From Cenococcum geophilum (lineage: Eukaryota): a stretch of DNA of 64,000 bases. The notes below the pieces were generated by a model that worked only from the letters and a program-made list of their open reading frames with translations, had not been told where the DNA came from and did not search any database. Of this stretch, positions 40,427 through 48,100 are shown in pieces. Position numbers and translations under genes: made by a program. The DNA lies in assembly GCA_050273025.1 (NCBI GenBank), contig CP158635.1, positions 6,324,001 through 6,388,000 of the forward strand. Direction: 5' to 3'. Every line of letters starts with the position of its first letter. Position 1 is the first letter of the stretch.

Positions 40427-41330
40427 GTTTTTATAATAAAGAATATTAGTAGCTTCTACGTAAATAGCTTTATATATTTATAAGAGGGTAATTAGTATAT
40501 TTAAGAATAAAAAGTGGTTAATAGCTCTTATTTAAATTAAACTGACTTATTTAAAGCAGAATTAGTAAGCGAAGTTTGGAAGGGAGGTTAAGAATATAGT
40601 AGGGCTGTTTATCGCTATAGGCTAAGCAAATTATTTTCGCAATAAGAAAAGAAGGATAGTATGCCACCTCAGCTTTATATTAATCGCTGGTGCGGGGCTG
40701 GGTTTTCCTTAGCATATTTTATTATATATATCCTCTATAGTCTTTAGTGAAAAACTCCCCTTACTAGGATCTATTTCCGTCTGTGGACTCAGCTAAGGGT
40801 GAGTAGCCCTAAGCAACCTTAAGCACGCCCTAAGCACGTAAGGACGGCCCCGTTCTAGGCACTTAGTATTAGAGCTGCGCACACGCTGCAAATTTGCAAG
40901 CAAACTAGGCCCATATAGGAAATCAGCATGCAATTTTTAAAACCCGACGGAAACCGACAAATTGGGCCTGTTTTGGGGGCGCAGAGCTGGAGGACCTCTA
41001 CGTGGCTGACGGGCGGAGCGATTTCTTGAAGCAATTAGAGCCAGACTTACAGTCACGTGACTATATCTGGCGATGCAGCAATGCAACTCTGCAGCTGATA
41101 CGGACCCAGTTCCAGCCCTGTGTAATAGATGCAAATTTACCGCAGCGCTAAGCTTATATAGGAAATTAGTATGCGACTTCAAAATAACGGAAGTTTTGAC
41201 TGCAATTGGGGTGCAGAGCCTTGCTAAGGGCATTGTTCCAAGGCCGCGCGTGCAGCCAATTGTCGTGCGTCAAAAACTTCAACTTATAATTATATATATA
41301 CAAGTTAATTATGATATTATGATAATTTAT

Positions 41331-41544
41331 GGCAAGATGGCCGAGCGGTCCAAGGCGTGCGGTAGGGTGATAAGTCTTGATTTCTATGCAAGTGTTAATC
41401 ATTCTATATTAGACTCAAGCGTTAAGCTTCCTATTAGTGATATTAGGTTATTCTCATGGGTATGCTTACTTTAAGTCTCTTGGTATCTATTAAATTAACA
41501 TTACAAGGCTTTTGCCCGCGGGGGTTCGAATCCCTCTCTTGTCA
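41331..41544 (+). tRNA. tRNA-Leu(CAA) with three intervening sequences (two GT-AG, one canonical)
   Basis: Acceptor GGCAAGA/TCTTGTC-A, D arm GCCGAGCGGTCCAAGGC, CT-CAA-G at 41414-41419, T loop GGTTCGAATCC, T-run terminator at ~41549. Exons 41331-41361, 41413-41419, 41451-41459, 41508-41544 give 84 nt. One C:T mismatch in the anticodon stem. Confidence 0.85.
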
Positions 41545-41639
41545 ATTATTTTTTTCCTTTTTCTTATTTAACTAGTAGCTATCATCGGGAAAATATTCGC
41601 AGGATGAGATTCAAGTAGACTTTGTTTTTCGCGTTTCGC

Positions 41640-41940
41640 GTAATTGATATGCAATTTAACCAACTCGATACGCAATTGACCAACTTAACACGTAATTGAC
41701 CAACTTGATATACAACTTAACTAACTTAATATATAACTTAACTAACTTAATACGCAATTAACTAACTTAATATATTTAAAAGTTAAATAATATATAGTTA
41801 ACCTACTTAATAACTTTAAAAGCTAACTATATATTCCTTAATATGCAATTAACTAACTTAAAATTTAAATAATATATAGTTAACTAACTTAATAACTTTA
41901 AAAGCTAACTGCATATTCCTTAATATATAATTAAGGTAAT
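41640..41940 (+). repeat. Degenerate 20-bp tandem array (GCAATTGACCAACTTGATAC-like), probable transposon subterminal repeats
   Basis: Repeated CAATTGACCAACTT / CAATTAACTAACTT units, increasingly AT-rich rightwards. Confidence 0.7.
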
Positions 41941-45100: not shown

Positions 45101-48100
45101 TACTGGGTGCTATCTATCTTAATACCTTTACATAAAGCACGCCCCTAGTGTATAGTTTAATGTATCTGTTTTTATAACTATCTCTAGTTCTAGTTAATAG
45201 ATCTTAAGAATTAGCTCCTAGGTAAATAACTCTTTAACTTTTTTAAAGAGTTTTCTTTACTCTTCCCCCTATACCTATAGTTCTTCTTTCTTTATTAACC
45301 ACGTAAATGGCTTAATATCCTTTAACCACTACGCTATAAACCTTTTATAGTAATTGCAAAACCCTAGAAACGATCTTAACTATATAACGTTCTCTAGTTC
45401 CTACTAATTCACTATAGCCTTAATCTTTTTTAGATCTATACTAAGTTGGCCTAGTTTAATAATAAATTTAACAAAATTGGTCTTCCTAGTAAAGAACTTG
45501 TATTTCTTAATTACTACTAGCATCTGTTCTTTTTATAGTCTCTTTAAGACCTATTTAACGTATTCCCTATATTCTTCCTTAGTTATTAAGTAGATAATAA
45601 TATTGTTAAGATATACTATAATAAATTTATCTAAGTGTTCTCCTAATATATTATTAATACGCTTCTGGAACGTTGCTAGTGCGTTTATAAGCCCAAATTA
45701 TATAACTAATAGTTTATATAGTCCTTCCTTTAACCTAAAGGCTGCCTTCTATTTGTTGCCTTCCTTAATCCTGATTTAATAGTACGCCTATCTTAGATCT
45801 ATCTTTATAAAGATTTGCGTATTGCCTATTCTATCTTAGATTTCGCTAATTAAGGGTAAAGGATACCTATCCTTTCTAGTAATGCTGTTTAACTGTCTAT
45901 AGTCGATACACAGCCTTAGTTTGCCATTTTTCTTCGGTATAAATAGTACTAGATAACCCGCTAATAACTGCGATGGTTTAATGTATCCCTTTTATAAATT
46001 TTCCTAGATAAACTCTTTTAACGCTTTACCCTCTTCTTTAGTAAGCTTATAGATTAGAAAGAACTTTAAACTTATTCCTAGTTCTAACTCTATTTTATAG
46101 TCCCATACTGCATATTCTAATAGCTTTTTACTTTCTGGTAACTATAGTTTCTTACCGTACTTATGGTATCTCTTTAGTATATAGCTTAGTCCTTTTTCTG
46201 TTTCTTTATAGGTTGCTCCTACTTAGTACTATACTAACTTAGCTTATTATTGCATCTTATAGCGTTAAGTATCTCTAATATTAATCTAACTTGTAATCCA
46301 ATTAATTCTTAGATTATATTCCTATAACTAAGGTATGCCTAATACTGCCTCGTCCCGTCCCAATAGTAGGATATTAAAAGACATCTTAATTTATTTTCCT
46401 TTAATAGTTATCTAAATAGGCCCTATTTTAAGATTAATGATCCCTCCTCTATAGGTTATTAGATCTCCTAAAATTGTAGCTAATAGGTAAGGTTACTCTT
46501 TTTATCTATAAGGTAGCCCTATTCTCTTAACTGCTACTAGTGAGATATAGTTTCGCGTTGCTCTACTATCTATTAGCGCTTTAAACTGCTAATCTTGCCA
46601 ATTAATCCGTAAATTTAGGTATTATCCTTAAATTCCTTTAAGGGTCTGAAGCTCTACTACTGGCTCCCTTTAGTCCTATAGGCCTCTACTTTTCTTAACT
46701 ATTAGCCACTTAATCCTAGTGCACTTGGCTTATTTTTTAGCTAATACCTAGTTTACTTTTTATCTTTAATATGCTATAGACACGTGTTTTCTGGGCATTC
46801 CCACTACTGTTATCCGTCTAAGTATTCTTCTGTAAGGAATCTTCCTAGTTAAAGTACTAAACTTTCTTCCTCTTAGATTTCTATTAGATGCTATCCATGC
46901 ATATATTTAGTATTCCTATACTATTGCTTATCTATTATCCAGTATATCCTTATAGGGTATTTCTGATTCTTTTCTTTTAGATTCTTATATATTTTGTATA
47001 TATTGTCTACGTACGCAATTTATAATAACATATAGTGTGCTAGGTGCTTTAGGTTAACTTTTAGCTTATTTTTATCCTTAAGTTTAAACCTTTATCGTAC
47101 TAATCTAAACGTTATGACTTTATTTATAGGTACTAAGATGCGCCTCTTACTTTTTTAGTCCTCTAAACGTTCCTCTAGATCCTTTAACGTTATAATTAAG
47201 GCTCCTTTAATATACGTTATGGCCTTCTCTATAATTAGGTAGTCCTAAATAACTTTTTTATCTAACTATATATAGAAATTTTCCCACTTATTATTGCGTT
47301 GTTGCCTATACCACTTTTAGTACAGCTACTAGAGTATATATGGTCTATCCGTAAGAAAATATCTCTTTATTACTACATTATAATAGCTTTTAGTATATTA
47401 TTCTTTGAACCTAGTAGGAATCCCTAAATCCTCTTCTTGTTCCAGTTTGGTAAGCCACTTAGCTCTTAATATACCTTCTCTCGGCCTATTAGTAATTCTT
47501 TATACTAGTGCTCTGTCCTTTATACGTCCCAATATGCTAGATTTTTTATCTAGTTTCTGTTTTTACTACGCGATAATTCTTTATCTAAATTCTTTTATAG
47601 TTTTTTTTAGTTTGCGCCTTGCGCTCTAATCCTTAAAGTTATCTTACTTCTTAATCCTAGTATTAATTTTTCGATCTTTAGTCCGAATACTTTATTTAAC
47701 TAGTAAATCCTCTAGGTCCATATATTTGTCTCCTAGTTTAATTACTATTTATACTGCAGATTCTCTAATTTATAAAGAAGCTCCTAGCCTCTTATCTATA
47801 GGTGTCCTAATTTATACCCCGAATTCTTGACCCCTTAGGTTCTTTAATCCTGAGCTTACTTCTAACCTAAGCTTAGCTCCTACCTTAGTCTAACTAGGCT
47901 TAACTAGTGTCCTTATCTCGTCTTAAGAATCTTAGATCTTACTTATCTTATCTTAAGAATCTTATACTATTAGGAATTCTTGTCCTAAGCTTATTTATAT
48001 ATCTTTAAACTAAGCCGCTGCTCTGCTCTATTAGTTTCTATCTATTATAGATTCTTAAGCTTGCCTTATCTCGTCTTAAGAATCTTAGTCGTCTCTTATC

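Follow-up and report, generated by a model that had tools for sequence, protein, structure and literature searches.

Structure and identity of a split tRNA gene

Introns of eukaryotic tRNA genes are taught as one class, with one site of insertion and one endonuclease that removes them. A locus within the 64-kb stretch of fungal DNA analysed here (hereafter, the window) raises the question of whether introns of the mRNA type can also interrupt a tRNA gene that remains functional. The tRNA-Leu(CAA) gene concerned occupies 214 bp on the forward strand (41331–41544), which three inserts of 51, 31, and 48 nt divide into four exons measuring 31, 7, 9, and 37 nt. Exon 1 (41331–41361) supplies the 5' acceptor strand, the D-arm, and the first four bases of the anticodon stem, and is followed by insert 1 (41362–41412, 51 nt), which lies between tRNA positions 30 and 31, begins with GTAGGG, and ends with TAG. 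Exon 2 (ACTCAAG, 41413–41419, 7 nt) contributes position 31 and anticodon-loop positions 32–37, with the anticodon CAA at 41416–41418. Insert 2 (41420–41450, 31 nt) is placed by the ARAGORN cloverleaf at 37/38, the canonical location of eukaryotic tRNA introns, and is the only one of the three inserts found there. Exon 3 (TTCTCATGG, 41451–41459, 9 nt) carries position 38, the 3' strand of the anticodon stem, and the start of the variable arm. Insert 3 (41460–41507, 48 nt; GTATGC at its 5' end and AAG at its 3' end) falls within the variable-arm stem, and exon 4 (41508–41544, 37 nt) holds the remaining variable arm, the T-arm, the 3' acceptor strand, and A73.

The genomic locus yielded no tRNA with ARAGORN, either when the whole window was searched or when the locus was searched with introns allowed, and no Rfam tRNA match at gathering scores or at E ≤10. 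Once joined in silico, the 84-nt product was identified by ARAGORN as tRNA-Leu(caa), with a 7-bp acceptor stem (one G-U pair), a long variable arm (GGGC-TTTT-GCCC), A73, and one mismatch in the anticodon stem (C29:U41). A preliminary description of the sequence had set out the same four exons and three inserts, which matched exactly on re-reading, and its Leu-type cloverleaf and restored variable-arm hairpin were likewise recovered in the joined product.

Promoter-like elements are also present. An A-box-like sequence (TGGCCGAGCGG, 41338–41348) lies inside exon 1 and a B box (GGTTCGAATCC, 41523–41533) inside exon 4, such that the two are now 185 nt apart in the genomic locus; the latter is the sole B-box match in the window, where 0.18 would be expected by chance. 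A TATATATATA run at 41291–41300 (–40 to –31 from the tRNA start) may serve as an upstream TATA element, and runs of seven and five Ts directly 3' of the gene (41549–41562) resemble an RNA polymerase III terminator and may act as one. The features of a functional tRNA-Leu gene were all found at this locus: a cloverleaf whose variable arm is long, the CAA anticodon, A73, both promoter boxes (A and B), and the T run, C29:U41 being the one mismatch.

Conservation in related fungi

A metagenome scan, in which the query was a D-arm followed 36–66 nt later by CTCAAG, returned 64 loci. By our own reading of the sequences, six of these are split Leu(CAA) genes (L007, L025, L036, L027, L055, and L058), two of which (L055 and L058) have the same sequence. 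Four others (L024, L050, L064, and L047) are ordinary Leu(CAA) genes with a second CTCAAG inside the canonical intron, and in the remaining 54, CTCAAG occurs by chance in coding DNA or in tRNAs of other kinds. We regard L007, L025, and L036 as orthologues of the window locus because approximately 300 nt of upstream sequence align (identities with the window of 300/300, 275/309, and 264/320, respectively). The possible TATA element is kept in all three.

An unforced MAFFT alignment showed that all 84 exon bases, beginning with the whole of exon 1, are identical in the window and its orthologues (84/84 each for L007, L025, and L036). Non-exon columns are approximately 82%–87% identical for L025 and L036, and L007 is near-identical throughout; in the 40 nt downstream of the gene, for example, the window and L036 share 35 positions. 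At the approximately 82% non-exon identity of L036, the probability that 84 exon bases would remain unchanged is about 5e-8 (our own arithmetic). The contrast between identical exons and diverged non-exon columns therefore shows that the exons, C29:U41 included, evolve under purifying selection. The preliminary description had cautioned that this mismatch could indicate a pseudogene, a concern that is not upheld, as the mismatch is kept in all four orthologous genes along with every exon base. We reject a decaying pseudogene in view of the exon conservation across orthologues.

The inserts have changed to differing extents. Identity with the window is 51/53 (L007), 43/53 (L025), and 41/59 (L036) for insert 1, and 47/48 (L007) and 38/50 (L025) for insert 3, which is absent from L036; for these two inserts, this amounts to 69%–81% in the more distant orthologues. 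Their interiors vary by substitutions and indels, while the GT, the branch motif, and the AG stay in place. Insert 1 keeps GTAGG, the branch motif TTAAT (CTAAT in L036), and TATATTAG in the orthologues, and insert 3 keeps GTATGC, AATTAAC, and AAG in L007 and L025. Splice signals retained around diverged interiors, with identical exons, are the pattern that the preliminary description had proposed looking for in relatives. In L036, exon 3 runs into exon 4 precisely at the predicted GT|..AG| junction. Insert 3 looks like a gain that postdates the divergence of the L036 lineage, the alternative being a loss in L036. Insert 2 is the best kept of the three (31/31 in L007, 29/32 in L025, and 28/31 in L036) and measures 29–32 nt in the orthologues. 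It also contains a direct repeat, TAYTAG-TGA-TAYTAG, in which the two Y positions read T/T (window and L007), C/C (L025), or T/C (L036).

The other split genes are more distantly related. L027 has a different exon sequence and a perfect anticodon stem, and is interrupted at 30/31, where insert 1 also lies, by 57 nt of unrelated sequence (GTAATT..CTGAC..ACAG). L058, found on the reverse strand in environmental DNA, also differs from the window in exon sequence and has a perfect anticodon stem; it carries three inserts, namely, GTAAGT..CTAAT..TAG at 25/26, the canonical intron, and a T-loop insert (GTGAGT..GACTAAC..ATAG) that divides the B box into two halves. The joined products of the window gene and these five related genes were all identified by ARAGORN as tRNA-Leu(caa) (6/6). 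An A box, a B box, and T runs behind the gene are common to all six, the T runs being located 3' of L007, L025, L036, L027, and L058 as in the window.

Splice signals and comparison with local mRNA introns

Junctions of the non-canonical inserts can be placed in more than one way without altering the product. Insert 1 has two equivalent registers (a one-base slide) and insert 3 has three (one base either way), and in each case only one register is GT..AG. Neither end of insert 2 gives GT..AG. The putative branch motif of insert 1, TTAAT (41395–41399), places the branch A at 41398, 14 nt from the end of the insert, and that of insert 3, TTAAC (41495–41499), places it at 41498, 9 nt from the end. 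We compared 10 non-canonical insert sequences, which represent five distinct inserts (inserts 1 and 3 of the window clade, insert 1 of L027, and inserts 1 and 3 of L058). A GT..AG register was present in 10/10 (5/5 distinct), as was a single YTRAY 9–14 nt from the 3' end, and every sequence terminates at the earliest AG that lies 7 nt or more past the branch A. Among random 45- to 60-nt pieces of the AT-rich surroundings, GT..AG occurred in 0.40% of draws, and GT..AG together with YTRAY 6–30 nt from the end in 0.115%. It is not credible that five independent inserts would have these features by chance.

For comparison with the mRNA introns of the same organism, we used six introns in the window that were placed by alignment to homologues; a seventh, the third intron of the zinc-cluster gene, was omitted because no placement was obtained for it (score 24). 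These six are 52, 52, 53, 56, 52, and 80 nt long and begin with GTGAGA, GTGCGC, GTGGGT, GTAAGT, GTATGA, and GTATAT, i.e., a variable GTNNGN-type 5' site, with G at +5 in five of the six and in both tRNA inserts. A branch motif occurs at 12 nt in three of the six. The GTAGGG of insert 1 is a weak 5' site. In length and 5' site, inserts 1 and 3 agree with the organism's own mRNA introns, and the likeness in length that had been claimed for them holds (48–59 nt for the tRNA inserts, 52–56 nt for the mRNA introns, plus one of 80 nt), as does the presence of a GTTGAC branch in RSC9 intron 1. The statement that two RGT1 introns end in AAG, as insert 3 does, was not confirmed among the homology-placed introns, whose acceptors are TAG (three) and CAG (three), with AAG in 0/6.

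Some further comparisons were made among the inserts themselves. The longest T run is 3 in nine of the 10 non-canonical inserts and 4 in the other, and runs of 5, 4, and 5 occur in three of the six mRNA introns; depletion of T runs was set aside as a sign of polymerase III transcription, as it is not significant by our own arithmetic for so few short sequences. Similarity between inserts 1 and 3 was also not significant, the score being reached by 217 of 2,000 shuffles. Group I or II self-splicing was set aside, because 48–59 nt is far too short.

Genomic setting

The window derives from a Dothideomycete: its copper-fist protein is 81% identical to a Glonium stellatum protein, and its RSC9 shares 80% identity with the Lepidopterella palustris protein. 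The tRNA gene itself sits in an AT-rich stretch (31%–34% GC) with short broken ORFs only. Between 34000 and 50000, the window is AT-rich with no ORF of at least 150 aa, and the short ORFs resemble pieces of retroelements; one of them (45836–45991, reverse strand) has a weak reverse-transcriptase match (RVT_1, E 0.003) that falls below the cut-off.

Directly upstream of the tRNA gene lies a GC-richer island (40855–41270) that is 82%–100% identical in L007, L025, and L036. Its ORFs gave no Pfam match, and the idea that it is the end of a protein gene was rejected on this basis; a relic of a gene, a promoter, and a further RNA are conceivable. On the downstream side, alignment of the window with L007, L025, and L036 breaks off at approximately 41575, beyond which these three still align with one another; this suggests that the present strain carries an insertion or a rearrangement immediately 3' of the gene. 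Tandem arrays with units of 20, 41, and 82 nt (consensus, e.g., ATACGCAATTAACCAACTTA) occupy 41647–41934, starting approximately 100 nt behind the tRNA gene. They reach depths of 200–500 in runs X13 and X18, and hence represent a multi-copy family.

Sequencing runs over the locus

A search of sequencing runs found part of the window in 20 of the 24 runs listed, and four runs (X13, X18, X19, and X21) were aligned to it. No joint at insert 1 or insert 3 was seen in any of the four, none of which is a tRNA or small-RNA library; only the unspliced form was present. In X21 (raw RNA-seq, of which approximately 12% was read), five reads matched with 90%–95% likeness, about one of them unspliced over 41374–41475. 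Contigs from X18 and X19, which are labelled as RNA, contain the unspliced locus from tRNA position 8–11 to approximately 150 nt past the T run. Given that X18, X19, and X21 were not prepared as libraries of tRNA or small RNA, and that DNA may be present in them, they are uninformative on the mature form. X13, a DNA run, contains an identical 190-nt contig over 41226–41415.

The X18 and X19 fragment (41338–41697) has peculiarities of its own. Contig depth is 106 and 131 in approximately 90 million letters, and Illumina adapter letters occur directly at 41338 and 41690. Such depth exceeds what stray genomic DNA would give, and the ends of the fragment are unlike those of a normal pre-tRNA. All six RNA-labelled runs that match the window share the same fraction of words with it (0.24–0.26). 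An apparent joint in X18 (41358>41522, with 36 other letters between) was rejected: by our own reading, it belongs to a different long-arm tRNA (anticodon GGA) of an organism in the X18 sample. The contig behind it has its D-arm and T-arm in common with the gene described here.

Weighing of alternative explanations

On the sequence evidence, we consider it probable that the locus is a functional nuclear Dothideomycete tRNA-Leu(CAA) gene that contains the 37/38 intron and two U2-type GT-AG spliceosomal introns, one at 30/31 and one in the variable-arm stem. Inserts 1 and 3 could instead be non-canonical introns that the tRNA endonuclease cuts by way of a fold resembling a bulge-helix-bulge, a mode known from archaea and some algae, in which case the GT..AG ends would be incidental. 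The eukaryotic tRNA endonuclease is not known to cut at 30/31 or in the variable arm. We scored the five distinct non-canonical inserts against the archaeal/algal-type arrangement (two 3-nt bulges with the cut sites, a 4-bp helix between them, and flanking helices). In its GT..AG register, insert 1 shows three of four central pairs and flanking helices of two and four pairs if G-U is allowed, a level reached at 0.37% of randomly chosen positions in the window; all four orthologous genes share this geometry because the insert ends are kept. However, its central helix includes only one Watson-Crick pair, as reaching three of four needs two G-U pairs, and insert 3 has one of four central pairs with no flanking helix. 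The 30/31 insert of L027 likewise has one of four, and the L058 inserts have two and one. With every equivalent register scored, a strict bulge-helix-bulge (four pairs and both flanking helices) was found in 0/5 distinct inserts, and since approximately 11 registers were scored, one weak match at the 0.37% level is not unexpected. Such a fold would also leave unexplained the GT..AG ends, the branch at 9–14 nt, and the use of the first AG in 5/5 inserts, for which the joint chance is <1e-10 (our own arithmetic). We rate this explanation as very improbable.

It is also conceivable that the inserts are never removed, in which case the tRNA gene would be disabled or the locus would have another role (e.g., a polymerase III/TFIIIC site, a chromatin boundary, or a different RNA) for which the tRNA-like exons are kept. 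The RNA-labelled data contain unspliced sequence only, the locus lies in a repeat-rich and AT-rich region, the anticodon stem has the C29:U41 mismatch, and the A and B boxes could be selected on their own as a TFIIIC site. Nonetheless, the identity of 84/84 exon bases across orthologues extends beyond these boxes to the anticodon, the short pieces of 7 and 9 nt, and each stem on both of its strands, and the splice signals are kept while the insert interiors drift. L036, moreover, lost or never gained insert 3 with every exon base intact, and the distant L027 and L058 are built in the same way from other exon sequences, with no mismatch in the anticodon stem. Retention of the locus for another purpose is hard to square with the conservation of all exon bases and splice signals, and we judge it unlikely. 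A further possibility accepts the introns as spliceosomal but derives the tRNA from an RNA polymerase II transcript, for example by read-through from the upstream island, from which RNase P and RNase Z would release it. The 415-nt island directly upstream is 82%–100% kept in the orthologues, and the RNA-labelled contigs extend approximately 150 nt past the T7 run, which polymerase III does not normally cross. These contigs, however, begin inside the tRNA (position 8–11) rather than upstream and may not be RNA, and no gene can be assigned to the island, which has no Pfam match. All six genes, furthermore, have an A box, a B box, and T runs directly behind them, and their inserts lack T runs longer than 4, although the latter is not significant for so few short sequences. 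We judge a polymerase II origin unlikely, and retain as the probable reading a tRNA gene with its own internal promoter and two spliceosomal introns.

Proposed maturation pathway

Because the same layout is kept in related fungi, the mRNA-splicing machinery is probably needed for the maturation of this tRNA. Transcription would probably be carried out by RNA polymerase III from the internal A and B boxes and end at the T7 run. The spliceosome would then take out inserts 1 and 3. Should this happen ahead of cleavage by the tRNA endonuclease, the middle exon seen by the spliceosome would be 47 nt long (7 + 31 + 9), with the tRNA intron still inside. The cloverleaf, including the anticodon stem and the variable arm, could form only after inserts 1 and 3 are gone, and the tRNA splicing endonuclease and ligase would therefore remove insert 2 at 37/38 afterwards. 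End processing and CCA addition would come last. This order, spliceosome before endonuclease, is our own inference. The preliminary description had held that both the spliceosome and the tRNA endonuclease would be required, with micro-exons of 7 and 9 nt. The involvement of two systems is supported at the sequence level by the joined 84-mer and by the splice signals in orthologues; the micro-exons need not be seen as such by the spliceosome, given the 47-nt middle exon of the predicted order. The minimum-free-energy structure computed for the 214-nt precursor retains the acceptor and T stems and pairs insert 1 with insert 3, a result from which we draw nothing, since L036 has no insert 3.

Relation to known introns and implications

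Introner-like elements in Dothideomycetes are a source of recent intron gain and are recognised by many near-identical copies in unrelated genes of one genome. The locus described here shares with them the fungal class and the presence or absence of an insert (insert 3) among close relatives. No second copy of either insert was found in the 64 kb or the 64 scan loci. A match to transposon fragments, which the preliminary description had named as a point against splicing, was found for none of the inserts elsewhere in the window or the fetched loci, and within this range no sequence pointed to a transposon fragment or an introner copy as their source.

Spliceosomal introns in non-coding RNA genes have been described in fungi. 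Hosts listed in the account drawn on here are U6 in Schizosaccharomyces pombe, U1, U2, and U5 in Rhodotorula hasegawae, and rRNA genes, with tRNA absent from that list (PMC5855946). As in these cases, a short GT..AG intron with a branch motif is found here inside the gene of a structured non-coding RNA, and the host is comparable to U6, which RNA polymerase III transcribes with the aid of internal promoter elements, polymerase III being probable for the present gene (PMC5855946). The difference lies in the tRNA host and in the combination of two such introns with an endonuclease-type intron in one 84-nt RNA, such that two splicing systems would act in turn. The reverse-splicing origin proposed for the U6 intron, based in that account on its nearness to the catalytic centre, is not obviously applicable to a tRNA (PMC5855946).

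Multiple introns per se are not new to tRNA genes. Those of archaea and some algae have, according to the literature cited here, up to three introns, at sites beyond 37/38 and with a bulge-helix-bulge (PMC8450103, PMC3978253), and non-canonical introns are described for tRNAscan-SE 2.0 as being searched only with archaeal bulge-helix-bulge models (PMC8450103). The present gene resembles these multi-intron genes in having sites beyond 37/38 and in being missed by standard eukaryotic tRNA finders. It differs from those with endonuclease-cut introns in that its inserts form no strict bulge-helix-bulge and have the GT, branch motif, and AG of local mRNA introns. In Metazoa, the 37/38 intron of tRNA-Leu(CAA) is stated to be conserved (PMC12530127). 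Insert 2 corresponds to this canonical intron in position, unlike inserts 1 and 3 at 30/31 and in the variable arm. No description of spliceosomal introns in tRNA genes was found in a search of full-text papers drawn largely from outside subscription journals.

If the proposed reading is correct, a single 84-nt RNA depends on two splicing systems that are unrelated and must act in a set order, the reach of the spliceosome extends to a second class of probable polymerase III transcripts, and intron gain reaches even the most constrained small RNAs. The presence or absence of insert 3 among close relatives would offer a natural system in which to date the gain or loss of an intron. Split genes of this kind are missed by standard tRNA finders and may account for isoacceptors that are apparently missing from fungal genomes. 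From the sequences compared here, we lean towards a broader view, held with less confidence than our reading of the gene itself, that in this Dothideomycete lineage and in other fungi represented in environmental DNA, the spliceosome may be a regular step in tRNA maturation, acting before the endonuclease on what would probably be uncapped transcripts of polymerase III. tRNA genes in these fungi would then gain and lose introns of the mRNA type, and, such genes being invisible to tRNAscan-SE, ARAGORN, and Rfam, fungal tRNA sets would be undercounted.
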